Shown here piece by piece: positions 1,251 through 24,045 of a DNA stretch of 64,000 bases. Source of the stretch: Giardia intestinalis (taxonomy: Eukaryota); the NCBI GenBank assembly GCA_000002435.2, contig CM018793.1; one strand, given 5' to 3'. Positions within the stretch are counted from its first letter, which is position 1, and each line of letters begins with the position of its first letter. The position numbers and the translations under genes are program-made. The notes beneath the pieces are model-generated. The model was not told the origin of the DNA. It was given only the letters and a program-made list of their open reading frames with translations, and ran no database searches.

Positions 1251-3979
1251 TTTTAATTTTGCCGAGCTGTTTCTCGCCGCATGCGGACGGCAGAGGTCGG
1301 GCCAGTAGATGGAGCGCCCCTTATCGCACCGGGCTGTGGTGCGTGGACGGGGCGAGTATGTCAATCCTGCTCGGGTGCATGCTGCGACAGTCGAAGACGA
1401 GGGTCTATGTTTCCACACATAAGGGAAGCAACAATTGAGTGCTGCAGCGCGCCCGGCCGCCTGTGCCGTGGCACCCCTGAGAAGGTGCTGCCCGACGATC
1501 ATGGCCAGCCCGTAGGCTAGTCGACACATCGTGGAAGCAACAGAACGTGAGAAGCATGAAAGGCCGGTCCATGGCACGAACCAGGATGCAGATGCTCCGT
1601 GCATCGGGGGATGGCACGCTGGCCTCGCGGCGGCAGAGCCGTCATCTGATCACTCATTTACTCTCCGCTTCACCGGGGCGGGGTTGTCCCCTGCTACCTG
1701 ACCAGGTCCTCCATGCGAGCCACCGCCGCCCCGGACAAGCCACTCCCCCCATGCACCGGCCGAGATCCAGAATCCGAAATCAGAAGGTCAGATGTCGTCC
1801 AGCTCCGACGGGGAGGATTGTGCCTCCTCCTCCAGGGTGGTAACGAATGCAGATGAGCGTCCGAGGCTGGTGGTGGGATCAGCCTCTCACACGCTAAGCT
1901 GACGCTCACCAGGATCATTGCCCGCTGGTCGAGATGGACCCACACGTGACCCATGTAAATCCCTCGACAAGAAATAGGAGTTGGGGTGCTTGGCTGGCAG
2001 AGGTGGACTGATCCTGCCCGCACCGGAGAGTAGTGGCCTGGGCCACCTGCCGGGTGTCTGCCACAGCAGTTGGCAGTGCCTGACACCCTCGAGTAGACAG
2101 GTGTCGTCTGCCGAGCAAGCCGACTTCGGTGAGCCAGTCCTAATCGCTCTTGGTGCCTCAGACGACGCCTCTCAGAGAGGTGGCCCTGGACCGACGCCTC
2201 GACAGACCGAAGCATCACCCCAAGTGTGTTGTGCAGTGCAGATGGAGCCCACACGTCACTGAGCCAGACACACTGCACAGAATGAGCGTCGACACGGTCT
2301 CGTGCTGGGTGACGGAGCACCTGCAAGAGCGCCCTGCGATCCATGAGCAGAGGGCCATACTTCTCCCCGACACAACACATGGGAGTACTCCATCGACATC
2401 CACGAATGCGTACCACAACCTCAAGATGGAGGCGTACGTGGAGCGCACCCTCCGATCATACTCGAGACTGATGGTATAATCCACGAGGAGACGAAGAGGC
2501 ACCCGAGGAACGGGGTAGACACCCGGGGTCGTGGCGTGCGATCTTCGTCATGGAGCACCAGGGCCCGGGCCACGTGGAGACCAGATCGCCGCGACAAACG
2601 CAAGGCCCTGAATAACGGGTGCCCACCAGTGCCAGACGATAGTTGACCCCGATGGGCCAGAGGAAGGGGGAACCCTAGAGGTAACGTGAGGAGCAGCGGC
2701 TTCCGGGGGACGGGGCACAGAGTCTTCTCCTGTCGGGATCGAGGGCATCTGATCTTCGGACTCTGGATTTTGATCTCAGCTGGTACACGAGCGAGAGATA
2801 CCCGCTTGCCCAGGACGGCAGTGGCTCGCACGGGAAATCACTCAGGTAGCGGGTGAGCCGTCATCTGAGCTCCCGGTCGACAGACTGCCTGGCCAGTACT
2901 GATATTATATGCCGCCCCATACATTATGCATTGAGAGAGTGGTACTGCACGAGGACGCAGTGGGGCGTCTTCTTCCTTGCTCTGGAGCCAACACCTGTTC
3001 ACTGTGAGGGCGCGGATGCTCAGAGCTTCCAGGGTCGTCTACATGTGCTGGTGAGACCGGGCGGGTAGCCTTCTGGCATTAGAGGCCTGCACAGGCCAAC
3101 AGGTCCCCTCCTTTGGTTCATGAGCCATGCACCGACGCTTTTCGAGAGGCGACCCGCTCCAAGCCAGGGAACTGCGGCGGAGCGTCCTTGTAGCCTGTTT
3201 GCTGAGGCGCTTCTTATCCCCATGATCACAGAGCTAGAGAAGGCAAGCCATACTCCCCGCTCGAAGCTCTGGGGGTAGAACACCAGTCACCAGACATGGC
3301 CACGGCCACAGCTGTTCTGGCGCCTATTCTATGGGCGCCGCCACACATGTCCTCGCTCTGTGCGCAGTAGCGGCCCAGTACACAAGGGCCTAAAGTAGGA
3401 ATGCCCCAGAGACTGCCGAGATAGCTCTTGGGGTCCTGTCTTCGGGTCCATCTCTGTCTTGATACTAGTGATGCTAGGGACAGAGCCGAGGAGGAAGCGC
3501 TTTACTGGGCTTGCTTCATCTTCTGATTTTTTCGGGTCTTGAGGAGTTGATCAAGCAGCAATAGACCGCGCCAACGAGCGAGCATCGCAGCGTCTGGCAG
3601 TAAGCAGCTCCAGCCCCTGACGCGTCTACTATCGGGTGGCCCGCCGCTCTCAAGTATTTGCAGCAACGACAGCAATAGGCAATCGCCGGCCTCTTTCGCG
3701 CGCACACCCTAGAGTGGCTTCTCAGAGGCACCCTCTGCGGCGTCCTTGCGCAGCAGTGGGCAGGGTCTCGGCAAGCTCTGCCTGCTAGGACGGTCGGGGC
3801 GTCTTCTCGGAGACTGATGGCCAGCTACCGTGGACACGCAGGAAGTCGTCTGTAGTGGTCTAAGCATCGGTATCGAACTCCACGTTAGAAGTCACCGCTT
3901 AGCGGGCCGGAACCGTGAGAGAGGGCCCCGCAAATGCATGTTGTTCCGCCCCACAACCCGCCATCGGTTGGCAGCCTTA

Positions 3980-6139
3980 ATGTTCGGCAGATTTTTGCTC
4001 GCGGGCGCCATTCTTCAGCTGGCACGGGCTGCGTGTGAAGAGGACAAAACCTCAACTGATGGAAAGTGTAAAACATGCGGGGTCACCATCGGCCAAGACA
4101 CTTGGTGCTCAGTTTGCATAGGAGAAAACTATGCGCCCATCAACGGAACATGCGCCGATATAACAACTGACTCTGTGGGCTCTGTCTTTTGCACCCAAAA
4201 GGCCGGCGGCGTTTGTACACAGTGTGCTGGGAACTCCTTTATGTTTGCAGGCGGCTGCTATTCCTCTTCGGAGGGTCTTCCCGGTTATAACTTGTGCTTA
4301 CGATCTGCTGGCAATGGCGTATGCGCAGAGGCTGCCCCAGGGTACTTCATTCCAGGCGAGACGGCTGCCACCAAGCCGTCGGTTATATCATGCAGCGACA
4401 AAACTGGACTGCTTATTACAGCACATACTTATAAGGGAGTGGAATTTTGTGAAGAGTGCAGCGGCTCGGAGCTGACCAGTGGCCAAGATGGAACCGCTAA
4501 GTGCACCAAGTGTGGAGCCAGCAAGTATCTCAAGGATAATGCGTGCGTGGACAACGCCGAGGCGTGCGGGAAGGGATACTTTGGTAAGCCAGATGCAGCA
4601 GCGGGTAATAAGTGCATTGCTTGTACAGATCAGTCCGACGGTGGCACGGCTGGGTGCGCCGAGTGCATGTATGACTCTAACACAAGGAAGGCCATTTGCA
4701 CAAAATGCACCACCGATTACCTCAGAAAGAAAGCAGATGGCACCACAGAGTGTGTGGCGGCGAATGAGTGCGACGATACTCAGAAAGGCTTTTATAAGGT
4801 GGTCGACTCCACAAATGGAAATAAGTGTGTATCGTGTGCCGACGGAGCCGGGCTCGCTGTCGGGACCGATGGGGCTTGGAAGGGTGTCGACGGATGTGCC
4901 AAGTGTATCAAGCCGGCAGATATAAACACACCCACAAAGTGCGACGAGTGCAAGCCGGGATATGAGATAAGTACAGACAAAACAAAATGCACAAGCACTG
5001 CACCACCGGACTGTCCAATCGAGAATTGCAAAGTGTGCTCCGAGGATAAGAGAGCCTGCGAGGAGTGCAATAGCAACAATTATCTTACCCCAACAAGAAT
5101 GTGCATAGATGACTGTAAAAAGATTGGAAACTACTATTATACCAGCAATGCTAACAATAAGCTGATCTGCAAGGAATGTGCTGTGGCTAATTGCAAGGAA
5201 TGCGAGAACACTGGGACTTGTAAGACGTGTGACGATGGATTTTACAAGAGTAGCGAAGAATGCAAGGCATGCGACTCCAACTGCAAAACATGTAATGGAG
5301 GAACTAGTGCCGATTGTACCAAGTGTCTTAGCGGAGCGGTACTCAAATATGGGAATGATGGCACTAAAGGCACATGCGGAGCTGGATGCGCAACGGGCAC
5401 AGGAGCAGGAGCATGCAAGACGTGCGGCCTAATTATTGACGGGACGAGCTATTGCTCAGAGTGTGCTGTCGAGACAGAATACCCCCAGGGTGGCGTCTGT
5501 AGCTCAACAACTGTCCGTGCTGCAGCCACTTGTAAGGCTGGAAGCGTTGCCAAGGGTATGTGTAATTCATGCACCAACGGATTCCTTCGTATGAATGGAG
5601 GCTGTTATGAGACAACCAAGTTCCCTGGAAAGAGCGTCTGTGAGGAAGCAGCATCGGCTGGGGATACCTGCCAAAAAGAGGCCCCAGGCTATCATCTTAA
5701 TAACAATGACCTTGTGACTTGCTCGCCTGGATGTAAGACGTGCACTAGTAACACTGTGTGTACTGCATGCATGGAGGGATATGTGAAAACTAGCGATTCG
5801 TGCGCAAAGTGTGCCGCTGGTTGTGCTACATGTACAGGGTCCACCACAGCTTGCGACACTTGCAGCACTGGGTACTACAAATCTGGGACTACCTGTGTGT
5901 CTTGCACGGAAAGCAACAGTGATAAGACTATCACCGGCGTCGCCAACTGCGCTAGCTGCGCTCCTCCACTCAACAATAAAGGGTCTGTCCTCTGCTACCT
6001 CATAAAGGATAGCGGTAGCACCAACAAAAGTGGTCTCAGCGCGGGCGCCATCGCGGGCATCTCCGTCGCAGTCATCATTGTTGTCGGCGGTCTTGTTGGG
6101 TTCCTCTGCTGGTGGTTTATGTGCAGAGGAAAAGCGTAG
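3980..6139 (+). CDS. variant-specific surface protein (VSP), 719 aa, copy 1
   Basis: The signal peptide is MFGRFLLAGAILQLARA. There are about 29 CXXC motifs and two GGCY motifs. The C-terminus is the conserved TM segment AIAGISVAVIIVVGGLVGFLCWWFM followed by the CRGKA tail. The VSP-typical 3' element ACTTAGGTAGTAAAT follows the stop. Confidence 0.95.
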   Translation: MFGRFLLAGAILQLARAACEEDKTSTDGKCKTCGVTIGQDTWCSVCIGENYAPINGTCADITTDSVGSVFCTQKAGGVCTQCAGNSFMFAGGCYSSSEGLPGYNLCLRSAGNGVCAEAAPGYFIPGETAATKPSVISCSDKTGLLITAHTYKGVEFCEECSGSELTSGQDGTAKCTKCGASKYLKDNACVDNAEACGKGYFGKPDAAAGNKCIACTDQSDGGTAGCAECMYDSNTRKAICTKCTTDYLRKKADGTTECVAANECDDTQKGFYKVVDSTNGNKCVSCADGAGLAVGTDGAWKGVDGCAKCIKPADINTPTKCDECKPGYEISTDKTKCTSTAPPDCPIENCKVCSEDKRACEECNSNNYLTPTRMCIDDCKKIGNYYYTSNANNKLICKECAVANCKECENTGTCKTCDDGFYKSSEECKACDSNCKTCNGGTSADCTKCLSGAVLKYGNDGTKGTCGAGCATGTGAGACKTCGLIIDGTSYCSECAVETEYPQGGVCSSTTVRAAATCKAGSVAKGMCNSCTNGFLRMNGGCYETTKFPGKSVCEEAASAGDTCQKEAPGYHLNNNDLVTCSPGCKTCTSNTVCTACMEGYVKTSDSCAKCAAGCATCTGSTTACDTCSTGYYKSGTTCVSCTESNSDKTITGVANCASCAPPLNNKGSVLCYLIKDSGSTNKSGLSAGAIAGISVAVIIVVGGLVGFLCWWFMCRGKA

Positions 6140-6151
6140 ATGTACTTAGGT

Positions 6152-6158
6152 AGTAAAT
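6152..6158 (+). terminator. Giardia polyadenylation signal AGTAAAT for VSP copy 1
   Basis: This is the AGTRAAY consensus, 13 nt after the stop, within the conserved VSP 3' element. Confidence 0.7.
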
Positions 6159-6600
6159 ACGTCACTGTATAAGCCTATCACTCCTGTTTCCAGGGCCTCG
6201 CCTGTAGGTGCATTCAAGGATCTCACGGGCAATTCTTATTCAATTTCTGGCCGTCCGGAGATGAGGGTTGGTTTTGGATAACATAACGAGAGAGTCCTCT
6301 CCAGTGATATATCCAGAGCCTAGCGCCTTCCCTGGTCGCTCTGTGGGTGTGTGCTCAGACCGAATGCGTACTTCGGTCCTTTCGGGGTTCAGGCCTTCTT
6401 ACGGACTCTCTGGTCCACCAGTGGCGCCTCTTCTTGGTCTTCCTTCGTGGCGGGTGAAGCTCCGGTCGCTGTCTTTTTTAGATGCCCCGTCCGCCAGGGG
6501 CTGCCATCGGGCTCTCCGCTGGCTGGGCCCTCGGTGTCCGGGCAGCTGTGGCTCGAGTCAGTGCTCCCACGGTCGCGGTCACGTAGGTCTCAGTGGGCCG

Positions 6601-6670
6601 GCTGGTGGGTGAGGCAGGGGTATGGGGCGGTGAGGCTGGTGGGGACTGGTGGGGGCTGAGGTGGGGGGTG
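6601..6670 (+). other. G-quadruplex-prone G-run tract at the inner end of arm A (mirrored as a C-rich tract at 8298-8367)
   Basis: The sequence ggtgggtgaggcaggggtatggggcggtgaggctggtggggactggtgggggctgaggtggggggtg has at least six runs of GGG or longer with short loops. Confidence 0.5.
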
Positions 6671-6687
6671 TCTGTATGTGCCTCTGG

Positions 6688-8280
6688 TCCCTCGATAGAC
6701 TGGGGTGATCATAGCTGTGGTGACTGGGGGCTGTCCATCTGTGACTCACCCCTCTGTGTGCTCGTGGTCTGTGAGTGCCTCCACCCAGACAACCCTCAGG
6801 AGCCGTGCACACCAGACAGAGAGGATGACCAAGGGGAGTCAAGTATCCCTGCCATGAGGGTGCACAGCAGCCAGCCTGGGCTGCATGGCCTGCTCAAGCG
6901 ATGTAGTGACAGACGACTCCCTCTGACAGCGACCCTGGTGACTGCACTGGTCTGCTCTCGAGGCTGAGTGGCAGTGTGCACAGACGGACCTGAGTCCAGG
7001 AGGGCCATCCACACACGGACAGACTGTGTGGACCCAGAGAGGACTGGAGTCTGCTCGGGACACGCTGACTGTAGACCTCATGCGAGAGCCCCAGACAGCC
7101 ACCCGAGAGGCAGTGACAGACACGGGCACCAGAGATCCCTAGCCAGACACATTGCTATGCTCATCCACAGGGGCATCAGAGGGCCAGGTGGAGTCACCCT
7201 CACAGTCAGGGCCTGGTAGGAAGCCAGAGGACTCACGCAGCACAGCAGAGCAGGCCCAAGGGAGGCACACTCCAGGCAGGTGAGCAGTGGCAGAGCCCTG
7301 ACAGCTGCCAGCCCCCATGACACCCAGGCAGGCACGACTCACCGAAGACTCTGCTGGCCTCGACTGCCTCTATCAATGACCCGAGGGGGCAGCAGCCAGA
7401 GGAGTGAGGAGGCCTTCGGATGACACAAGAGGCCCGGCTGTCCAGCAGACGATGGAGCACAGGTGGCCTCTGAGCACCACAAAGGCACAGGAGCCGACCA
7501 TCAGAGTGATGCCCGATCACAGAGACGACCACGAGCACCCTCCACCGCACTCTGAGGGGCTGTCGATCATTCCACTGCCTCTCATAGCAGACCTCCTTGA
7601 GGGCAGTGCAGTGAGTGACTCAGCTCATGCAGGAGGGTGCACGCCTCCCTCAGTATAGGGTGCCCCGACTCTCCCCGAGAAGTCATCAGAGCCACGAGGA
7701 GGGGTCAAGGTCCTGGTGGACCACATCGGGAACTCCTCGAGGGCACAGCAGGTGAGGTATGGGTAACCATCAGCGTGCTCCTCTCTGCATGATAGAGCAT
7801 CCTGAGACCAAGGAGGATCACCTCTGCCTACGGACGACACACAGCGCTCCACAACGAGGACCCACCAGGAGCAGCACAGCTGACCACGGAGACAGTGCAG
7901 TCACTGGTGCCCCACCATGCCAGTCTTCTGAGCCATCACACTAGAGGCACGAGAGAACCCCATCCCATCCACAGGGTCATCCACACCCCTGCTGGTCCCA
8001 GGTGAACTACCCTCGTCGAGGCACCGGACAGGGCATGCCAGGGGGCTCAGCAGACACGCACAGAGCAACAGGAGAGGCTGCGATGGCCTGCCTCAGTCCT
8101 CACGTACCGGCCAGGCAGAGAGGCAGTACTGCCCGAGGCATGCAGGGGCCAGGGAGGCACTCAGTCAGGGGGACACGACACGATCGTCGGTGCCTGTGTC
8201 TTGGAGTGCAACGAAGGCTGGGGATCAGACACAACCACCTTAGCAAACAGAGCGGGGATCACCCCAATGACCCACCGAAC
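6688..8280. other. Unique central spacer of the palindrome (~1.6 kb), non-coding, GC-rich and strongly strand-asymmetric
   Basis: It has no mirrored twin. Only short Pro/Arg-rich ORFs occur in every frame. Positions 6688-6965 are G/T-rich and 6966-8280 are markedly T-depleted (C/A/G-rich) on the plus strand. Confidence 0.7.
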
Positions 8281-11200
8281 CCAGGGGCACATACAGACAC
8301 CCCCCACCTCAGCCCCCACCAGTCCCCACCAGCCTCACCGCCCCATACCCCTGCCTCACCCACCAGCCGGCCCACTGAGACCTACGTGACCGCGACCGTG
8401 GGAGCACTGACTCGAGCCACAGCTGCCCGGACACCGAGGGCCCAGCCAGCGGAGAGCCCGATGGCAGCCCCTGGCGGACGGGGCATCTAAAAAAGACAGC
8501 GACCGGAGCTTCACCCGCCACGAAGGAAGACCAAGAAGAGGCGCCACTGGTGGACCAGAGAGTCCGTAAGAAGGCCTGAACCCCGAAAGGACCGAAGTAC
8601 GCATTCGGTCTGAGCACACACCCACAGAGCGACCAGGGAAGGCGCTAGGCTCTGGATATATCACTGGAGAGGACTCTCTCGTTATGTTATCCAAAACCAA
8701 CCCTCATCTCCGGACGGCCAGAAATTGAATAAGAATTGCCCGTGAGATCCTTGAATGCACCTACAGGCGAGGCCCTGGAAACAGGAGTGATAGGCTTATA
8801 CAGTGACGTATTTACTACCTAAGTACATCTACGCTTTTCCTCTGCACATAAACCACCAGCAGAGGAACCCAACAAGACCGCCGACAACAATGATGACTGC
8901 GACGGAGATGCCCGCGATGGCGCCCGCGCTGAGACCACTTTTGTTGGTGCTACCGCTATCCTTTATGAGGTAGCAGAGGACAGACCCTTTATTGTTGAGT
9001 GGAGGAGCGCAGCTAGCGCAGTTGGCGACGCCGGTGATAGTCTTATCACTGTTGCTTTCCGTGCAAGACACACAGGTAGTCCCAGATTTGTAGTACCCAG
9101 TGCTGCAAGTGTCGCAAGCTGTGGTGGACCCTGTACATGTAGCACAACCAGCGGCACACTTTGCGCACGAATCGCTAGTTTTCACATATCCCTCCATGCA
9201 TGCAGTACACACAGTGTTACTAGTGCACGTCTTACATCCAGGCGAGCAAGTCACAAGGTCATTGTTATTAAGATGATAGCCTGGGGCCTCTTTTTGGCAG
9301 GTATCCCCAGCCGATGCTGCTTCCTCACAGACGCTCTTTCCAGGGAACTTGGTTGTCTCATAACAGCCTCCATTCATACGAAGGAATCCGTTGGTGCATG
9401 AATTACACATACCCTTGGCAACGCTTCCAGCCTTACAAGTGGCTGCAGCACGGACAGTTGTTGAGCTACAGACGCCACCCTGGGGGTATTCTGTCTCGAC
9501 AGCACACTCTGAGCAATAGCTCGTCCCGTCAATAATTAGGCCGCACGTCTTGCATGCTCCTGCTCCTGTGCCCGTTGCGCATCCAGCTCCGCATGTGCCT
9601 TTAGTGCCATCATTCCCATATTTGAGTACCGCTCCGCTAAGACACTTGGTACAATCGGCACTAGTTCCTCCATTACATGTTTTGCAGTTGGAGTCGCATG
9701 CCTTGCATTCTTCGCTACTCTTGTAAAATCCATCGTCACACGTCTTACAAGTCCCAGTGTTCTCGCATTCCTTGCAATTAGCCACAGCACATTCCTTGCA
9801 GATCAGCTTATTGTTAGCATTGCTGGTATAATAGTAGTTTCCAATCTTTTTACAGTCATCTATGCACATTCTTGTTGGGGTAAGATAATTGTTGCTATTG
9901 CACTCCTCGCAGGCTCTCTTATCCTCGGAGCACACTTTGCAATTCTCGATTGGACAGTCCGGTGGTGCAGTGCTTGTGCATTTTGTTTTGTCTGTACTTA
10001 TCTCATATCCCGGCTTGCACTCGTCGCACTTTGTGGGTGTGTTTATATCTGCCGGCTTGATACACTTGGCACATCCGTCGACACCCTTCCAAGCCCCATC
10101 GGTCCCGACAGCGAGCCCGGCTCCGTCGGCACACGATACACACTTATTTCCATTTGTGGAGTCGACCACCTTATAAAAGCCTTTCTGAGTATCGTCGCAC
10201 TCATTCGCCGCCACACACTCTGTGGTGCCATCTGCTTTCTTTCTGAGGTAATCGGTGGTGCATTTTGTGCAAATGGCCTTCCTTGTGTTAGAGTCATACA
10301 TGCACTCGGCGCACCCAGCCGTGCCACCGTCGGACTGATCTGTACAAGCAATGCACTTATTACCCGCTGCTGCATCTGGCTTACCAAAGTATCCCTTCCC
10401 GCACGCCTCGGCGTTGTCCACGCACGCATTATCCTTGAGATACTTGCTGGCTCCACACTTGGTGCACTTAGCGGTTCCATCTTGGCCACTGGTCAGCTCC
10501 GAGCCGCTGCACTCTTCACAAAATTCCACTCCCTTATAAGTATGTGCTGTAATAAGCAGTCCAGTTTTGTCGCTGCATGATATAACCGACGGCTTGGTGG
10601 CAGCCGTCTCGCCTGGAATGAAGTACCCTGGGGCAGCCTCTGCGCATACGCCATTGCCAGCAGATCGTAAGCACAAGTTATAACCGGGAAGACCCTCCGA
10701 AGAGGAATAGCAGCCGCCTGCAAACATAAAGGAGTTCCCAGCACACTGTGTACAAACGCCGCCGGCCTTTTGGGTGCAAAAGACAGAGCCCACAGAGTCA
10801 GTTGTTATATCGGCGCATGTTCCGTTGATGGGCGCATAGTTTTCTCCTATGCAAACTGAGCACCAAGTGTCTTGGCCGATGGTGACCCCGCATGTTTTAC
10901 ACTTTCCATCAGTTGAGGTTTTGTCCTCTTCACACGCAGCCCGTGCCAGCTGAAGAATGGCGCCCGCGAGCAAAAATCTGCCGAACATTAAGGCTGCCAA
11001 CCGATGGCGGGTTGTGGGGCGGAACAACATGCATTTGCGGGGCCCTCTCTCACGGTTCCGGCCCGCTAAGCGGTGACTTCTAACGTGGAGTTCGATACCG
11101 ATGCTTAGACCACTACAGACGACTTCCTGCGTGTCCACGGTAGCTGGCCATCAGTCTCCGAGAAGACGCCCCGACCGTCCTAGCAGGCAGAGCTTGCCGA

Positions 11201-13530
11201 GACCCTGCCCACTGCTGCGCAAGGACGCCGCAGAGGGTGCCTCTGAGAAGCCACTCTAGGGTGTGCGCGCGAAAGAGGCCGGCGATTGCCTATTGCTGTC
11301 GTTGCTGCAAATACTTGAGAGCGGCGGGCCACCCGATAGTAGACGCGTCAGGGGCTGGAGCTGCTTACTGCCAGACGCTGCGATGCTCGCTCGTTGGCGC
11401 GGTCTATTGCTGCTTGATCAACTCCTCAAGACCCGAAAAAATCAGAAGATGAAGCAAGCCCAGTAAAGCGCTTCCTCCTCGGCTCTGTCCCTAGCATCAC
11501 TAGTATCAAGACAGAGATGGACCCGAAGACAGGACCCCAAGAGCTATCTCGGCAGTCTCTGGGGCATTCCTACTTTAGGCCCTTGTGTACTGGGCCGCTA
11601 CTGCGCACAGAGCGAGGACATGTGTGGCGGCGCCCATAGAATAGGCGCCAGAACAGCTGTGGCCGTGGCCATGTCTGGTGACTGGTGTTCTACCCCCAGA
11701 GCTTCGAGCGGGGAGTATGGCTTGCCTTCTCTAGCTCTGTGATCATGGGGATAAGAAGCGCCTCAGCAAACAGGCTACAAGGACGCTCCGCCGCAGTTCC
11801 CTGGCTTGGAGCGGGTCGCCTCTCGAAAAGCGTCGGTGCATGGCTCATGAACCAAAGGAGGGGACCTGTTGGCCTGTGCAGGCCTCTAATGCCAGAAGGC
11901 TACCCGCCCGGTCTCACCAGCACATGTAGACGACCCTGGAAGCTCTGAGCATCCGCGCCCTCACAGTGAACAGGTGTTGGCTCCAGAGCAAGGAAGAAGA
12001 CGCCCCACTGCGTCCTCGTGCAGTACCACTCTCTCAATGCATAATGTATGGGGCGGCATATAATATCAGTACTGGCCAGGCAGTCTGTCGACCGGGAGCT
12101 CAGATGACGGCTCACCCGCTACCTGAGTGATTTCCCGTGCGAGCCACTGCCGTCCTGGGCAAGCGGGTATCTCTCGCTCGTGTACCAGCTGAGATCAAAA
12201 TCCAGAGTCCGAAGATCAGATGCCCTCGATCCCGACAGGAGAAGACTCTGTGCCCCGTCCCCCGGAAGCCGCTGCTCCTCACGTTACCTCTAGGGTTCCC
12301 CCTTCCTCTGGCCCATCGGGGTCAACTATCGTCTGGCACTGGTGGGCACCCGTTATTCAGGGCCTTGCGTTTGTCGCGGCGATCTGGTCTCCACGTGGCC
12401 CGGGCCCTGGTGCTCCATGACGAAGATCGCACGCCACGACCCCGGGTGTCTACCCCGTTCCTCGGGTGCCTCTTCGTCTCCTCGTGGATTATACCATCAG
12501 TCTCGAGTATGATCGGAGGGTGCGCTCCACGTACGCCTCCATCTTGAGGTTGTGGTACGCATTCGTGGATGTCGATGGAGTACTCCCATGTGTTGTGTCG
12601 GGGAGAAGTATGGCCCTCTGCTCATGGATCGCAGGGCGCTCTTGCAGGTGCTCCGTCACCCAGCACGAGACCGTGTCGACGCTCATTCTGTGCAGTGTGT
12701 CTGGCTCAGTGACGTGTGGGCTCCATCTGCACTGCACAACACACTTGGGGTGATGCTTCGGTCTGTCGAGGCGTCGGTCCAGGGCCACCTCTCTGAGAGG
12801 CGTCGTCTGAGGCACCAAGAGCGATTAGGACTGGCTCACCGAAGTCGGCTTGCTCGGCAGACGACACCTGTCTACTCGAGGGTGTCAGGCACTGCCAACT
12901 GCTGTGGCAGACACCCGGCAGGTGGCCCAGGCCACTACTCTCCGGTGCGGGCAGGATCAGTCCACCTCTGCCAGCCAAGCACCCCAACTCCTATTTCTTG
13001 TCGAGGGATTTACATGGGTCACGTGTGGGTCCATCTCGACCAGCGGGCAATGATCCTGGTGAGCGTCAGCTTAGCGTGTGAGAGGCTGATCCCACCACCA
13101 GCCTCGGACGCTCATCTGCATTCGTTACCACCCTGGAGGAGGAGGCACAATCCTCCCCGTCGGAGCTGGACGACATCTGACCTTCTGATTTCGGATTCTG
13201 GATCTCGGCCGGTGCATGGGGGGAGTGGCTTGTCCGGGGCGGCGGTGGCTCGCATGGAGGACCTGGTCAGGTAGCAGGGGACAACCCCGCCCCGGTGAAG
13301 CGGAGAGTAAATGAGTGATCAGATGACGGCTCTGCCGCCGCGAGGCCAGCGTGCCATCCCCCGATGCACGGAGCATCTGCATCCTGGTTCGTGCCATGGA
13401 CCGGCCTTTCATGCTTCTCACGTTCTGTTGCTTCCACGATGTGTCGACTAGCCTACGGGCTGGCCATGATCGTCGGGCAGCACCTTCTCAGGGGTGCCAC
13501 GGCACAGGCGGCCGGGCGCGCTGCAGCACT
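8281..13530. repeat. Arm B of the large inverted repeat
   Basis: It is the reverse complement of 1438-6687 and all ORF translations are identical. I found a single mismatch, near the inner boundary. Confidence 0.9.
8829..10988 (-). CDS. variant-specific surface protein (VSP), 719 aa, copy 2, identical to copy 1
   Basis: The translation is identical to 3980-6139. It is convergent with copy 1. Its AGTAAAT polyA signal is at 8810-8816 on the minus strand. Confidence 0.95.
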   Translation of the reverse strand: MFGRFLLAGAILQLARAACEEDKTSTDGKCKTCGVTIGQDTWCSVCIGENYAPINGTCADITTDSVGSVFCTQKAGGVCTQCAGNSFMFAGGCYSSSEGLPGYNLCLRSAGNGVCAEAAPGYFIPGETAATKPSVISCSDKTGLLITAHTYKGVEFCEECSGSELTSGQDGTAKCTKCGASKYLKDNACVDNAEACGKGYFGKPDAAAGNKCIACTDQSDGGTAGCAECMYDSNTRKAICTKCTTDYLRKKADGTTECVAANECDDTQKGFYKVVDSTNGNKCVSCADGAGLAVGTDGAWKGVDGCAKCIKPADINTPTKCDECKPGYEISTDKTKCTSTAPPDCPIENCKVCSEDKRACEECNSNNYLTPTRMCIDDCKKIGNYYYTSNANNKLICKECAVANCKECENTGTCKTCDDGFYKSSEECKACDSNCKTCNGGTSADCTKCLSGAVLKYGNDGTKGTCGAGCATGTGAGACKTCGLIIDGTSYCSECAVETEYPQGGVCSSTTVRAAATCKAGSVAKGMCNSCTNGFLRMNGGCYETTKFPGKSVCEEAASAGDTCQKEAPGYHLNNNDLVTCSPGCKTCTSNTVCTACMEGYVKTSDSCAKCAAGCATCTGSTTACDTCSTGYYKSGTTCVSCTESNSDKTITGVANCASCAPPLNNKGSVLCYLIKDSGSTNKSGLSAGAIAGISVAVIIVVGGLVGFLCWWFMCRGKA

Positions 13531-14029
13531 ATAGAGCAGGATGGTTTTACTGGAAATTTCGATGCGCTCCAGGCAACGGACCCCCTGAAGATCGCACATG
13601 TGGCCGACAGAAAGTACAAGATGCTCCTCTGGAACCTCTCCCTGTTCTTTTCGGTTGTCCTGGAGCGCCGGCGGTTCAGCACCATCGGTTTCAACTCGCC
13701 TTATGACTGGTCCGACCCAGACCTGCACATATCCAAGACGCAGCTGCTTACTAAGTTCCAGGAGATTGCAATCTGCGATCAAGCCAGCTTCCACAAATTT
13801 CTAAGTGATTATCGGATTACAATTTTAATAGGGCAGAGCACATCTACCTATCACGGGAGAATACCAGAATCGTTAAAGATACCCGCCTAAAAAATAAGTC
13901 TTTCGCACTTTCCATAATATAAAGCTATTTGGCATGATATTAATTTCATGGATTAGTAATAGAGCTAGCTACCTCAGTAGGGAGAATTAGATCAGTGCCA
14001 TTAAATCACCTTTAAGCAGCTGGTCTAAT

Positions 14030-17000
14030 TCAAATATGTTTACTAATAGATAGCTTTGCATCTAACTGCCTTCTGCACATTTTTTGTTGCTTGCGCCCGA
14101 GACGCACATAATCATCCTTGAGAAGGGCGTCATATGGACGGATATAGTAGCGCGTTATATGATAATAGCTTCCTAGGATCATAGCTTTTAATTTCCCGGG
14201 TGTGGGTTGAGACCCTGAAACAGAATCGTAAAAGTTGTATCGTATCCATGAAACTCCAAGCAATGCAAAGGCCTGGGAATTAATTCTATAGAACTGACGC
14301 AGCCGGCGCATGAGTTCTGTTACATACCATAGCACCACTGCATTTCTGGCGCGATCTAACTTCAAAAAGTTGTTTAGGTCTTCTTCGGTATTGATTTCGC
14401 TGAGCATGCCATCAGCATGGATAGGCTCTGTCAAATTGTACTGCAGCGCGTTCAATACCATTTTATGCATATCTTGGATTATATCTATAAAACATTTGAA
14501 TACACATTCTCTCACTCGTGGCTTTGAAACATGGGCCTCTATATCTTTCATGAATACTGGTGTGCTGATGAACTTTGTGTAGATTTCATAATTCTTTGTA
14601 TCTATTAAACACTTCATGTTAAACCAATATGTAAGCCCTTCGGTGCTGTCACTCGGGGACTTCAACGCTGATATCTCGTCCAGAAAAGATTTTAATCGCT
14701 TTCCCGCCGTATCGCGCATCTCCTGAGAAAACCTAAGGACGTCAACGATTTCACTGGGAAAATCGATTGTTGTTTCAAATGTGTTCTGTTGTAGTGTACC
14801 GTTTGAGATCATCTCTGCTTTATTTTTGACTGCCATTGTATAGAAGATCTTATCACGCGTGGTCTGTGAAGGCTTCTGGTCACTACCCCACTTCTCTTCC
14901 GCAAGCTTGTTCTCACATATCAGCAAGCAGTGGGTGTGTGGGGCTGTTGGCCAATACTCTTCACTGCAGCGGTCAAGCTCAAACATGTAACTGCTGAGCT
15001 TGTCTTGTGACAGCGAGAAGATATTCTTAGTAACCACTCCACGAACCTTGGCGCCGCAATCAGTATAAATAGTAGAAATATGAGTGATTGCGCTATTGAA
15101 GAAACTAACATTGAGAGCATCTCTGGGCGGAAGCTTCGAGATTGTGACCGTCCGGTGCCTATATAATGGCTTCTGCTGTGTATTGGAAATTGCGAGAATG
15201 CCGTAGTGCATAGTGTCTAGTGAAAAACCTGGATATGAATACATATCAATATAAATCGTACGTATAGCAATACGCGACTCTCTAACTAGAGAAAGGTTCA
15301 TCTCTATTTGCTTTTCTTCGGTGCTTGCAGGATCCCCAGATATCTTTTTGATACGCTCTCGATTAGCCTTGATGCTGTCTTTTTCAGAAATAACAAACAT
15401 TGGAACATTATCTTTATACATTTTCTTGAGGTTATTAGCTAAAGCAAGATTCATATTCCCTCTAGTATAATCGCTAACAATAGACATATCCGCAATGATA
15501 CTTGAGCAATGCAAAATCTCATCTCCGCTCTTACTCATAAAGAACTTATCGTCTAAATTTTCCGCCTGCTCGTAAGGATAAATACTGACATCTACGATTC
15601 GGTCTTGATAGTCGCGAGTAACTCCGTAAATCAGTGTGGATCTGCTAGTAAGTTGCTCGAAGAGACGGGTGATCCCAAAGAGGCACTTTCGGGGATCCCA
15701 GTACTCCTTCATCTGATCGTACACAGTGTAGTCATTCATGTCGATGCTATCCACATAGTATATCTCTTTTCCTTTAGCTGATACTCCATCCTCTGAGCCA
15801 GCAACACGTGCCCTAGTGCCCTTCAGCATTTTGTCCCGTACCGATAAAGACCCATCCAATTGGGGAAGATCGTTAGCCTGGCTGCTTATTTCGTTGTCCT
15901 TTTCCATTTTACCACGTTGCCGAGACCTACCCGCCATTCCGGCTTTTGACTTCAGTGTTTTAGCCTGAGCAGAGGAATCTAGAACAAGGCACTTGTCTCT
16001 CATGGTCAATCCACCCCTAGGGTTACTAACACGAAGGCTGAACAGTGTAGAGCGGTTTTTAATGACACGGATGATTCGGGAGATGTTGCACATTGCCATG
16101 TGCTCGTCGTCCGTCCATCGCTGCCAACACGATTTAACGAGTCCTTTTATGCCCTCGTCAGAAAGAGCTGCACGCGCCTGTTTTACTGGATAGAAAATAT
16201 GAAAGGGGTATACTGCATCGGTGAAGCCTTCCTGACACAAGGGATCGTAGCTATTGGTTTGGACTCCATGATCCACGTCGTTTCCTAGACAAGAGAAGAT
16301 TTCCCGCGGCTTCATGGTGATGGAACTATAATTGGCATAGTTATTAAAGGATGAAATCATCCTTTCGTCAGGAAAGGCCTGAGAATTAATTGTTCCAGAA
16401 ATAGAGTCAGGAAAAACATGTTCCGTGATCGCATTGGCATATCCAGAGATTATCTTTTCAACGCGGTCTTCTCCAGCATCCTTTAATACTTTCTTAGAAA
16501 GAAACGGACAACCTCTGTATGTCATAAAGTCTGATCCTAAGTTATGAGTTGGCAACACGGTTTTCCCCGACAAGAACAGGCTTGCTCTCTTAAGCTTATA
16601 GCGTGCGGCCGCCAGCTTCTCTTGATTTTTGTTATCCATTGCTCGCAGAGCGTGCACATGGATGATGTTATGCTGGTCAGTTGTCAGTATGTCCCGTATA
16701 CCTGTGTCATCAATGATCTCAATGATCTTTTGCATGTATCCTGACCACAACATGTTGCTCTTATCAGACCTATCTAGGTTTGATTTGGCTATCAGGCTTT
16801 GGGAATCTTTTGAGCATTCTGCATCCCTCATTGATAAAACAACGTTGACAGGATGCAAGTGTTCTTTGAATGCTCGCCTGATATGTGTCGGTAAATACTC
16901 TACGTGACTGCTAGACGACCCAGACACCCGTACATCCTGATACCGATGTTCTTCAAGGATCTTACTAGGAAATCCTGTATTAACAACATTAAATTTGTCA

Positions 17001-20000
17001 AGCGGAAGACGCCGCAGTATGTGTACGGGTGTATTGATACAGAATTCTATTTCACTGGCGCAAAGCCCAAACTGCTCGATATGGACGCGTAAGTCATCTG
17101 GGGCGGAGGCACGCTGGCGTGTTTTGGGCAGGAGGGCGGCGTTGCAATTAGTGCAATGAATGTCTGGCCGTTTGTCGAGCTCAAAGACCTTATTCATGCT
17201 CTGAAATATCTCCTGTTCCATGTCATCCTCCTTTTCTGCCTCGAGGCCTCCTTGCTTTGACTTGCTGCGCTTTTGATTTTTATCACGGTTGATAAATGGC
17301 CTTGTAAAGAGCCCTATCTTGGGGAAGGCGCTTGCATGTAGCTTCTTGTATGGATAAAGTATCTGACTATTGACGGGCTGATCGGTTATGACGGAGTAAA
17401 TGCCCTCCAAGAGCGGTCTAGATTGATCCTCTCGCAGAGAGAATGGAAAGATGTGAAGTCTGTTCTTGAAGGGGAGGTCGTGCTTCGGAGAGTTTTCTGC
17501 CTTCTCGCCAAACTTGCTGAGAAGCGAGGTAAAACAGCCAAATCTCAGACTCGTGGCACCAAAACTTTGGTAGGAATTCTCATCAACATATGAGTATGTC
17601 TGGAATTCGTTGTTCTCCCGTATCTTGTGCATGTAAGAAACTCGGAAGTTTGTTAGGAGACAGAGCGCCATTTGAGACCATCCCAAGAATCTATCTATCA
17701 AGAAAAGCTTTGCATCGGATTTTTCTGCGGTCATTTTTGCCGCCTGCATCAAATAATAATCTGCCCGAGATTTGGTTAGAAACCTGTCCACAAACGCCCC
17801 TGATGAAAGGAAATTTTCCAACAGTAAGATGTAGAAAATGTGTGTCTCAGAAACTAGACCTGTGCAAAACTCATCATTCTTGTCCGATTTGTCTCCCTTT
17901 GCAGAGTCTGCCATGTCCTTGAAAAATGATTCTGCGGCAAAGATGCCAAGTAGGTCTTTATAGCGTGTTAGTATGGCGGCCTGAAGCGACGACTTTTCCT
18001 GAGTACCCGTCTTTTGTAAATCGCCCTCTATGTTGAACCGTGTAATGAAGTATCCTATTCTATGCTTTATTATACGCTTTACATTTTCTGGACCAAGGAC
18101 AAAATATACGTTATCACCTATTGACATTTTTTCAGCAAGGCTCTGCTTATTTGTATCTGTAGCTGTTGTAGCTGAGGACGGCTTTTGTCCAGTGGTCAGT
18201 AAAGACTGATCGTCATCAAAAGGGGTCCTCGGGACTGTTGTGTATGATTGTGAGGGATCAGATGCATTAGAAATAGTGTCCTGTGATTGGGCCTTAGACC
18301 TTGGTGCTTGTTTGCGAGCAGGTTCAGCACTATGATTGCCAGGGTCGTTAGTTGTGTTCAGTGTGCCATCAACTTGTTCCTTTTTAGTGTTATCCTTCAT
18401 TTTCTGCAGATCCTTGGCACCAGACTTGCTGTGCTGAACGGTGAACGTCGGGGCAGGGAAGAACTGGCCAGCAAGACAAACAGTTGGTAGTTCACGAAGA
18501 ACCCAGTTTGTAGACCGAAGCTGAAGGGTTGATGCTCCTGCTGGTGCAGAGGACACTGCGTATTGTATGGTAGACTTCTGGGTTACAATGTGCGTCCTGT
18601 CCTTTACAAGAAGAAAGCGGCACCTCTGACCATAGAAGCAACACTGAGCATATCCATGAGGTCCAATAAGATGTGGCGCCACAGTAAGCGTTGTCTTCGA
18701 AATAGTTGTTTTTGTCACGGGATGGATAAAAGGCATATTCTGATCAGTACTATCCATTTCGAGAAGTTGGTTCTGTGAAATAGGTGGAAATAAGTAGAAA
18801 TTAGCTTTGCGCTGTGCTTCTTCAAAGGCAGTAGACGAATGTGGAGAGGTGTCTGTCATGTGCAGATTCTGCGACTCTGGAGCAGCTACAGAGGGGCTAA
18901 TCTGCCGTACTGCATCGGCCCCGTCTGAGTCTTCTGGGAAACCGCAGACTTGATCGGAAGTTGTGTCCATGGAGGTAAAGCAGTAACTCCCTGTATAGGC
19001 TGATGGGTCTCCAGTATAATAGGTATTTATTATAGACTGAATAGTATGCATCTTCCCAAAACTCTTCATGTTCTCTGGGGTGGAGTAGAAAATCCCAAGT
19101 CTGTAAGCCATCCCGGGTAGGCAAACTGAAAGAGGAAAGGGCTCTATGTGTTCGATAACAAAAACCCGCCCCGAATGCGCATATAGATTAGAATTAGAAA
19201 TGATACCATAATCCTGATCCATCCTTGACTTGGAGACCACATTGCCTGATGCTTCCTCTGGATTAACGTATAAGGAAGATAAAATCTGCTTACGATACGA
19301 ATAGATTGGTTGCTGGTCGAGTGGATCGCTTAGCACACCGTTGCGTAGCCCATTAGTAACTGAGAATATAGCCAGAGAATTATCAAATTTCGGCTTGTGA
19401 AACGTGTACATACATCCACCAATAGTGGATAGTGTCAGCGAGCCCAGAAATGGATTTGACAGTGAGCCGAAAACATAGTCAAAGAGCTTTTGCGCATAGA
19501 ACTTATTGACAGATGCCTCAACGCGGTAGAACTCGTCCAGGCTTTTCGTAGACATGATTTTATGGGTAGTAGATACCAATCCATGGGCCTCGTGGTTTTC
19601 ATGCAGAATCCATTTATGATAAGGAGAAAAGGGCCCTGTACTCGCTCCATTATTCTTGAAATAAAGTGTTCGTGCAGACTCTAGTAGAAACAGGTTAACG
19701 TTACCGGTGGCTAAAAGGTTGCTGCAGACGTTGACGAGAAGTGATACATGTGCGGGGAGGACCTTTGCGCCATTAAAGTGGTCAACTACGCTCCGGAGAA
19801 TGTGAATAGGGAACTTTCCATCCAAAAGGCACCTATGCAGAGCACCGGCACCCTGCTCTTTGAGAAGTTGCAAAACAATCTCGAGGAACTCAGGTCCCGA
19901 CGGCACAGTGGTAGTGTAAAAGGATTGAAATACTTGTTGCGGAATGCTTCTTATAAATCCGTCGCCTATGTTGTGTTGTTGTAAAGAAGAACTAACAAGG

Positions 20001-22620: not shown

Positions 22621-24045
22621 TTACTTCTTGTAATCACTGTGCCAAATAAATGCAGAATGCTTACTTACAGCAGGGTTGGATTTGGATCTGTAGATAAGCG
22701 AAGAGGATGCACGAGAGGCGGGTGGAAGAGGCCGAATAGCGGGTACTTGAGACAGAGCTGTAACAGGGCCAAGAACTAGGAGTCTCTGGCTTGCAGCTTC
22801 TTGTTTGAGTTGATCAGTGCTGATAGTCTTGTCGAGACTATGTAGCAGATAACCGCCTATCTGTGCCGCTTCTCCTGACTTGGCTTTTCCAGCAAGCTCG
22901 TTCCTCAACTGTCGCGTAAATATGTTTATCACTTGTTTGTGTCGCTGTCTATTATGCGTCAGAGCTTCATCTTCAGCTCTGTCCTTGTCTAGAACCGAAG
23001 ACCCTCTGACGACTAGGGGATCAGGGTCCCTCCGCTGCTGCTCTAACGCATACTGGGTACTACTGTCTATAACTTCCTTACTGACTTGCAACTGAGAATG
23101 GGATAACATTTGATCCCGCACGTCGTTAGGATTGTAGGATAGTATATCAAGATCTACAAGCTGATCGGGTGTACGAAGCTGTTGAGAGCATACATGCGTT
23201 GGGCTGACTAGTTGTGCAGCCTTTAGCTCTTGTGCGTCAGCTACAATGTCAGAGATGGATACAGCTGTATCTCCTATCCTTATAGAGGCCGCAGGGCTTT
23301 GGTGTATGGACAACTTTGGGAGGTCGTGGAAAACAGCAGAAGAGCACCTGCCCTCCGATTCGTTGCTATGAAGAGCAGATTGTGGATTATCGAGTGCACT
23401 TAAGCGCAGTTGACTGGTTGAGGCGTTGCTCTGATCATTTATTTGAGAGACGATATGGTTCGAGTCGCCGAGAGATACACTCCGATGCTCAAAGTCTGGC
23501 TCCGTTGGCGTAGAGTGAAAATGAAGCAAGAAAGATCCTGTCTCTGGCTTTGGTGGAGCAGTAGCCTGAGCCGCCAACACAACAATAGGGTCTTTTGACA
23601 AAACTAAGGGGTCCACTATTTGTATTCGACTGGAGGCCGGTCCGCTGACTGACAATCTATGGTGCGTGCCTGCATAGTGGGAAGCTCTGGCTTTTAGAAC
23701 ATAGTCATATTGATCTCTATCGCGTAATAAAGTGGACAGTCTGCTACGCTGTTGTATCGCTTGCAGATCCTCACTAAGGCACATGTCTCTTTGAAATGAA
23801 AACTCGGTATCAATGCGGACCTTGGCCATCTTCTCCAGGTAGGAATCTGCCTCCTCTGCAGAGATAATAAATGGAGATGTCTCTAGCTTGCTACGCCTCT
23901 TCTTAGTGGGCTTAATGATGGGAGGCAGGACACCTCCCGTTACGTTGTAGGTGTGCACCTCAAAGCCAACTGACGTTCCTGGCAAATTGTACTGTGTCTG
24001 CCGGACGGGCTGGTGGAGGGAAGGCTTATTGATTCTATTTGCCAT
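22621..24045 (-). CDS. hypothetical protein (474 aa), Ser-rich and low-complexity
   Basis: It is a long ORF. Its stop lies 6 bp from the stop of the convergent Orc1/Cdc6 gene. Confidence 0.5.
   Translation of the reverse strand: MANRINKPSLHQPVRQTQYNLPGTSVGFEVHTYNVTGGVLPPIIKPTKKRRSKLETSPFIISAEEADSYLEKMAKVRIDTEFSFQRDMCLSEDLQAIQQRSRLSTLLRDRDQYDYVLKARASHYAGTHHRLSVSGPASSRIQIVDPLVLSKDPIVVLAAQATAPPKPETGSFLLHFHSTPTEPDFEHRSVSLGDSNHIVSQINDQSNASTSQLRLSALDNPQSALHSNESEGRCSSAVFHDLPKLSIHQSPAASIRIGDTAVSISDIVADAQELKAAQLVSPTHVCSQQLRTPDQLVDLDILSYNPNDVRDQMLSHSQLQVSKEVIDSSTQYALEQQRRDPDPLVVRGSSVLDKDRAEDEALTHNRQRHKQVINIFTRQLRNELAGKAKSGEAAQIGGYLLHSLDKTISTDQLKQEAASQRLLVLGPVTALSQVPAIRPLPPASRASSSLIYRSKSNPAVSKHSAFIWHSDYKK

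Follow-up and report, generated by a model that had tools for sequence, protein, structure and literature searches.

G4 or other G-rich elements have been linked to the recombination of antigen genes in Neisseria gonorrhoeae (pilE), Borrelia (vlsE) and Plasmodium (var). Large palindromes of 9 kb to 1.45 Mb are found among the ampliconic sequences of the human Y chromosome, where they are kept identical by gene conversion from arm to arm. G-rich pause or R-loop termination elements have been described downstream of poly(A) sites in mammalian genes. In Giardia, antisense transcription is abundant and RNA interference has been connected with the control of VSP genes; VSP switching is considered to be epigenetic or RNA-based and not recombinational.

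VSP genes of Giardia also occur as identical inverted pairs, the flanks of which were described as 'nearly identical up to a point of abrupt divergence' by Adam et al. (2010, PMC2996952). For tail-to-tail pairs the tabulated points of divergence in that paper lie 318-559 nt past the stop codon, and seven of the nine published pairs diverge in the narrower range of 486-559 nt (Adam et al. 2010, PMC2996952). Tail-to-tail pairs have intergenic regions of 2.5-2.8 kb that are 'very similar' within groups, according to a preprint (10.1101/2022.03.07.483299).

The locus analysed here is such a pair and, like the other tail-to-tail pairs of Giardia, diverges abruptly a few hundred nucleotides past the stop codon. 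The parts of the published accounts that deal with VSP pairs mention neither a G-rich tract at the point of divergence, nor decayed mirror homology, nor a single skew flip. A link between G-quadruplexes and VSP pairs was absent from the literature searched, and the G4-prone tract at the inner edge of the palindrome is a previously unreported detail. With the human Y palindromes the locus shares long inverted arms of more than 99.9% identity, a unique spacer and an arm sequence that varies between lineages (4.2% between WB and DH); it differs in that the arms are about 5 kb long, that their cargo is a surface-antigen gene and that conversion is here inferred from sequence. As in the pilE-type systems a G4-prone motif lies beside a variant surface-antigen gene, in this case inside both arms and 462 nt past the stop codon, whereas promoter evidence for transcription through the Giardia motif, genetic dependence and conversion from donor to expression site are all lacking. 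The G-rich non-template strand a few hundred nucleotides past the poly(A) signal of each gene recalls the mammalian G-rich terminators; unlike these, the Giardia element is short, is absent after a solitary VSP gene and is known here from sequence alone.

Results

The earlier note had taken the locus for a Giardia VSP palindrome, and this identification holds. The palindrome is the catalogued, already known tail-to-tail pair 14586/d14586 of chromosome 5 of isolate WB. It appears in Table 2 of Xu et al. (2020, PMC7000408) with the entries Chr 5, orientation -> <-, 719 aa and 2689 bp; the same 14586/d14586 pair is found in table S4 of the preprint (10.1101/2022.03.07.483299), and GL50803_14586 is listed as vsp-186 with 733 aa by Adam et al. 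(2010, PMC2996952). In the window, by which we mean the whole 64-kb stretch of DNA that was analysed, the two ORFs are identical, convergent and end in CRGKA (with the stop TAG of GL50803_14586 at 6137-6139), and the 2689 nt between them are non-coding, compared with about 2.4-3.2 kb for the tail-to-tail class. Identity between the copies stops 543-548 nt past the stop codon, within the 318-559 nt given in Table 5 of Adam et al. (2010, PMC2996952), and the tract and boundary of the 14586 flank fall in the range of 486-559 nt. The preprint further describes the 14586/d14586 intergenic region as very similar to that of another VSP gene pair (10.1101/2022.03.07.483299). For assembly GCA_000002435.2, Table 2 of Xu et al. 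(2020, PMC7000408) has 12-13 VSP pairs of the -> <- orientation and 7 of the <- -> orientation. Coordinates of all features are collected in Table 1.

Table 1. Features of the VSP palindrome, in window coordinates.
Feature	Position	Strand	Basis or remarks
Arm A	1438..6687	+	Repeat search; 5250 nt
VSP GL50803_14586	3980..6139	+	Translation; 719 aa from second ATG, 733 aa from ATG at 3938
Non-coding 3' flank common to other VSP loci	6140..6600	+	Mirror 8368-8828; alignments with DH L011, ENA L012, ENA L016/L017
G-rich, G4-prone tract	6601..6670	+	VSP sense (non-template) strand; +462 to +531 from stop codon
Boundary patch, end of 100% identity	6683..6700		Mirror 8268-8285; local WB-DH divergence hotspot
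Decayed mirror continuation	6701..6790		On-axis alignment; T>A skew to ~6790
Asymmetric spacer core	6791..8203		GC ~62%; A>T on plus strand
Arm B, reverse complement of arm A	8281..13530	-	Repeat search; 5250 nt
Mirror copy of tract	8298..8367	-	Minus strand G-rich; sense strand for second VSP copy
VSP GL50803_d14586, identical convergent copy	8829..10988	-	ORF and arm comparison

Arm A consists of a GC-rich, non-coding upstream part of 2.5 kb, the VSP gene and a 3' flank of 548 nt. A spacer of 1593 nt separates it from arm B, to which it is identical at 5249 of 5250 nt, the sole mismatch being at 6683, 5 nt from the inner end. In their outermost 2.5 kb (1438-3979, mirror 10989-13530) the arms have a GC content of about 60% and contain no ORF recognisable by Pfam.

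Both outer ends adjoin genes. An annexin (alpha-giardin-like) ORF lies at 363-1604 on the minus strand beside arm A; its longest frame extends 166 nt into the arm, so that the true start is probably further downstream. A dynein heavy chain gene is interrupted by the outer end of arm B, and only a C-terminal remnant of it is left in the window, at 13531-13890 (Pfam AAA_lid_11). Short-read contigs from other runs (loci L001 and L003-L006) match the window exactly to the right of this remnant and then continue not into the palindrome but into a dynein ORF that is intact and exceeds 2619 aa; in L001 the region concerned spans about 11358-19217. The dynein contigs show 4-8 differences to the window, all of them transitions and clustered at 13549-13678, and three fully or nearly identical contigs end at 13751. 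The discrepancy could correspond to a heterozygous structural variant or to a second genomic copy.

The tract is 64% G (45 of 70 nt). The sequence quoted in the earlier note was located at 6604-6670, and its six runs of three or more G are present: GGG at 6607, GGGG at 6617, 6624 and 6641, GGGGG at 6651 and GGGGGG at 6663. An extra GGG is found at 6595, just outside the tract. The loops had been given as 1-7 nt, which is wrong for one of them, the actual lengths being 7, 3, 13, 6 and 7 nt. Because of the 13-nt loop the canonical motif of four runs with loops of at most 7 nt is absent, and the strict pattern (G3+N1-7)x3 G3+ gave zero matches in the whole window. Relaxed patterns do match, at 6595-6627 when loops of up to 12 nt are allowed and at 6595-6668 with loops of up to 15 nt.

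G4Hunter, which had been proposed as a check, scored the tract at 1.84-1.86 over 70 nt. This is the top value of the window and lies above the threshold of 1.5, the runner-up outside the tract reaching 1.14. The score was compared with dinucleotide-preserving shuffles in four backgrounds, namely the 3' flank, the centre, the whole arm and the GT-rich stretch, and was matched by 0 of 500 shuffles in each. Folding was performed by means of ViennaRNA with G-quadruplexes enabled (RNA parameters) and predicted a four-layer G4 on 6617-20, 6624-27, 6641-44 and 6651-54, an improvement of about 10 kcal/mol over the best fold free of G4. A rival hairpin in the single-stranded DNA of the tract was rejected, as it reached only -7.7 kcal/mol (z = +0.23). 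By G4Hunter and by the energy model the tract is thus predicted to be strongly G4-prone. Tandem Repeats Finder detected a 10-nt unit, CTGGTGGGGA, with 2.3 copies in the tract. The minisatellite-like units of the tract are CTGGTGGGGA and GGTGAGGCTGGTGGG, and on account of the 10-nt repeat unit the tract resembles a degenerate G-rich minisatellite.

Two further sequence features were recorded. The octamer GCTGGTGG, which is the Chi site of E. coli, occurs 11 times in the window against 2.2 expected, at 908, 1866, 6108, 6601 and 6635 plus their mirrors, as well as at 24009 and 42271. Eight of the 11 sites lie within the palindrome, two of them in each copy of the G-tract; the excess can probably be put down to the G-rich repeat unit and to VSP codon content. 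A weaker G-rich site is present at 1708-1757 (mirror 13211-13260), about 270-320 nt in from the outer end of either arm, with a 50-nt G4Hunter score of about 1.2.

The coordinates that the earlier note gave for the mirror copy are exact (14968 minus x), and its distance of about 15 bp between the tract and the end of arm identity compares well with the 12-17 nt found. Its statement that such tracts mark both junctions stands in part: a G-rich tract does lie at the inner edge of each arm, but the second copy is merely the mirror of the first and not independent. Both tracts are within the repeat and therefore constitute a single observation seen twice. A random placement as near to the boundary as this corresponds to about 0.35% of arm positions, or to about 4% of the 548-nt flank, both figures having been computed after the result was seen.

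At the boundary the identity between the arms falls very sharply, from 100% to about 63%, and decayed mirror homology extends for some 75-100 nt more. On the axis of the palindrome, 6701-6763 matches 8266-8204 at 63% over about 65 nt, including the shared 10-mer TGGGGTGATC, and global alignments of the spacer ends beat all shuffles at lengths of 200-800 nt. The AT skew of the plus strand was followed across the same region. The sequence is T-rich to about 6790, flips a single time at about 6790-6800 and is then A-rich through the spacer and the whole flank of arm B. The flip lies about 105 nt inside the spacer and about 125 nt from the tract. There is no change of skew at 8281, therefore the spacer is compositionally continuous with the flank of arm B, and we infer that the spacer core and this flank are one continuous older sequence, which is met by the arm A side near 6795.

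We discarded the view that the duplication originally broke at the spacer ends, since it is contradicted by the on-axis mirror homology and by the single skew flip. From the decayed homology, the skew flip at about 6795 and the types of junction present in other genomes (see below), the boundary is best read as a putative inner limit of arm-to-arm homogenisation and not as a raw breakpoint.

Screening of the spacer core against Pfam in six frames gave no match to a protein domain. A decayed VSP or retrotransposon gene was rejected as the identity of the spacer, with no Pfam match and with E > 0.05 in tblastn, for which 56 VSP-family proteins and the VSP of the window were used as queries. A known RNA was likewise rejected, the only Rfam hit being a chance match (E = 0.097). 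Beyond its edges the spacer shows no self-complementarity, and the possibility that it is a palindrome in itself was dismissed because its local self-complement score is inside the range of the shuffles. An imperfect self-complementary stretch is present at 7532-7643, about 100 nt off the axis of the palindrome, with 68% over 120 nt; as DNA it folds at -26.2 kcal/mol (z = -2.2).

The flank between the stop codon and the tract, which contains a poly(A) signal AGTAAAT at 6152-6158, is shared with other VSP loci. In L012 and L016/L017 it is 75-77% identical, although the VSPs that precede it have only 44% protein identity. Two blocks of the flank, at about 6250-6320 and about 6403-6515 (mirrors 8648-8718 and 8453-8565), are near-invariant; one is common to four loci and the other to three, the proteins of which are 44-89% identical to the VSP of the window. 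Examples are GAGAGTCCTCTCCA and CTTTTTTAGATGCCCCGTC.G.CAGGGGCTGCCATCGGGCTCT. This pattern suggests that the blocks may be a conserved non-coding element rather than neutral DNA, which might be a regulatory site, a promoter of antisense transcripts or an RNA. Neither the solitary VSP gene of L015 nor the GS (assemblage B) loci L013 and L014 have this flank.

At least some of the genes that carry the flank are apparently duplicated. Coverage is 52 for L012 and 57 for L016, versus 22.5 for the single-copy VSP contig L015 of the same sample, or about 2.3-2.5x, which apparently fits collapsed duplicated pairs. L012 ends at +362 and L016 at +230 past the stop codon, and the last 70 nt have G4Hunter scores of 0.23 and -0.1; these contig ends serve as proxies for pair boundaries and may have ended for other reasons. 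L017, obtained from a different sample, stops at the same base as L016. As indirect evidence, the ends that are not G-rich argue against a universal G-tract rule. A separate tract that is G-rich on the VSP sense strand was observed in GS, at 3254-3387 of L014, with a 70-nt G4Hunter score of 1.59. The VSP C-terminal fragment that precedes it by about 90-225 nt belongs to a head-to-tail array, and G-rich DNA downstream of VSP genes may for this reason exceed one flank family.

Two sequences bear on the age of the junctions. The DH (assemblage A2) contig L011 encodes a VSP that is 89% identical in protein to that of the window; it aligns through junction A to 6858 at 95.8% and follows arm B only to 8272. 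As junction A is present in DH, it predates the split between assemblages A1 and A2. The second sequence is P0001, a 129-aa database ORF of which the genomic context is not given, which spans a diverged arm B-type junction with its spacer and arm sides. P0001 is Pro-rich across the tract, which suggests that G-richness may be retained there too. Protein searches with the ORFs of the flank and spacer matched only P0001, a concatenate of 13 ORFs gave nothing, a HMMER search with P0001 as query returned only the self-match, and metagenome scans with one peptide pattern and one 29-nt flank pattern gave no matches. The earlier note had supposed that the tract could have generated or maintained the palindrome. 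A recent origin is not supported: both types of junction, junction A in DH and the arm B type in P0001, appear to predate the arm identity, and consequently the tract is probably not a recent creator of the boundary.

Divergence between WB and DH amounts to 4.2% overall. By region, the figure is 1.6% for the coding sequence and 8.0% for the flank; it rises to 15.7% in the tract and to 30% in the patch 6671-6700, and the spacer stands at 10.1%. The arms of WB show no flank differences between them, as against the 8% that separates the flanks of WB and DH. The boundary patch of DH resembles arm B, as would be expected if the end points of conversion vary slightly. In the comparison of WB with DH the tract was not found to be more strongly conserved than its surroundings; it appears to evolve fast and bears no sign of selection. 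The DH tract keeps five of the runs of three or more G and has lost the last one, and its G4Hunter score of 1.42-1.49 is the top of the 13-kb locus. The DH orthologue is not preceded by the outer 2.5 kb of the arms, and its neighbouring genes are different, so that VSP and flank stand in different contexts in assemblages A1 and A2.

Discussion

Our leading explanation, which we hold tentatively, is that the tract is an inherited, fast-evolving G-rich part of a shared flank, that the arms are homogenised and that no G-quadruplex activity is needed to account for the structure. The tract would be the slippage-prone G-rich end of a non-coding flank, about 550 nt long, which follows several VSP genes; some of these genes, at least, have apparently been duplicated. 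The arms would be held identical by homogenisation from arm to arm, that is by gene conversion between inverted repeats, and the end of identity at 6683-6687 would be the inner limit of this process within an older palindrome, now decayed, that may once have reached about 6790. Once the innermost 100 nt or so had diverged, the loss of homology alone would hold the boundary in place. The tract may well fold into a G-quadruplex when single-stranded, and its position beside the boundary was most likely inherited together with the flank. We infer that gene conversion is ongoing and that the tract is passive in it.

It is possible, if doubtful, that the tract is instead an active recombination element that forms a G4 on the sense strand during replication or read-through transcription, helps to maintain the palindrome and fixes its inner edge. 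Such an element could act as an initiator, its G4 stalling forks or polymerases and seeding repair from the other arm, or as a barrier that blocks heteroduplex extension or repair synthesis, so that conversion tracts coming from the arms end just beyond it. An active role is in line with a G4Hunter score that is the highest of the window and was reached by none of the 500 shuffles, with the predicted four-layer G4 and its lack of a competing hairpin, with a boundary 12-17 nt past the tract, with the G4 potential kept in DH and with the G-quadruplexes of antigen-gene recombination in Neisseria pilE, Borrelia vlsE and Plasmodium var. Against this, the two copies of the tract are one sequence, a stable boundary is explained by homology loss alone, the tract evolves fast, the canonical short-loop motif is absent and the literature searched holds no link between G-quadruplexes and VSP pairs. 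The two versions do not fare equally well. If the conversion tracts of an initiator ran to both sides, the inner 100 nt should have been homogenised too, whereas a barrier explains a decayed mirror of about 100 nt inside the tract versus 100% identity outside it, and is the version that fits the decayed inner 100 nt better. The clustering of tabulated boundaries at +486 to +559 (Adam et al. 2010, PMC2996952) also speaks for an active element, but it could equally come from common descent of the modules; other boundaries, at +230, +318 and +354/362, appear upstream of the position expected for the tract, and the two readable contig ends are not G-rich. In its general form, with the tract as a cis-acting recombination element common to tail-to-tail VSP palindromes, which would set the inner limit of conversion or seed conversion and perhaps spacer inversion, we consider the proposal rather unlikely. 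That judgement is made jointly with a variant, by which the tract stops convergent read-through that would otherwise give hairpin RNA feeding VSP silencing.

A transcriptional role taken on its own seems to us decidedly improbable. The tract would then be a G-rich, R-loop-prone pause or termination element after the poly(A) site of each convergent VSP gene, which would stop read-through into the identical copy in antisense and so avoid a long VSP hairpin RNA. The genes are indeed identical and convergent, the non-template strand is G-rich for both of them at 443-518 nt downstream of the poly(A) signal, GC skew is +0.58 over 6600-6699 and RNA folding predicts a G4 in the read-through transcript; abundant antisense transcription in Giardia and the link of VSP control to RNA interference point the same way. 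The G-rich zone is short, however, at about 110 nt, with a G content that drops after 6780, and thus offers no long zone for R-loop extension. Moreover, the tract is conserved no better than its surroundings, and the solitary VSP gene of L015 does without such an element.

That the palindrome and its junctions are an assembly artefact is hardly credible, even though perfect inverted repeats of 5 kb are hard to assemble and the earlier WB assembly broke at such pairs, as noted by Adam et al. (2010, PMC2996952). The pair stems from an assembly for which Xu et al. (2020, PMC7000408) give PacBio and optical-map data, and identical VSP pairs were present in the earlier WB assembly, being reported for vsp1267 (Adam et al. 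2010, PMC2996952). Junction A also runs through an independent DH contig, P0001 contains an arm B-type junction, and the arms hold one real mismatch.

Conclusions

The reason for the existence of identical inverted VSP pairs was called 'interesting, but cryptic' by Adam et al. (2010, PMC2996952). A role of the tract in making or maintaining the palindrome is neither shown nor excluded by the present data. Should the tract determine the start or end of conversion, it would be the first cis-element linked with the upkeep of VSP pairs and would connect Giardia with the G-quadruplex-driven antigen-gene recombination of bacteria and Plasmodium. A cis-element of this kind would represent a G-quadruplex-linked way to keep paired antigen genes identical, comparable to the G4 of Neisseria pilE. 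If the tract is passive, as in the explanation that we favour, the 'abrupt divergence point' of VSP pairs would be a limit of homogenisation inside an older palindrome, and the near-invariant blocks in the 3' flanks of distant VSP loci would merit a study of their own.
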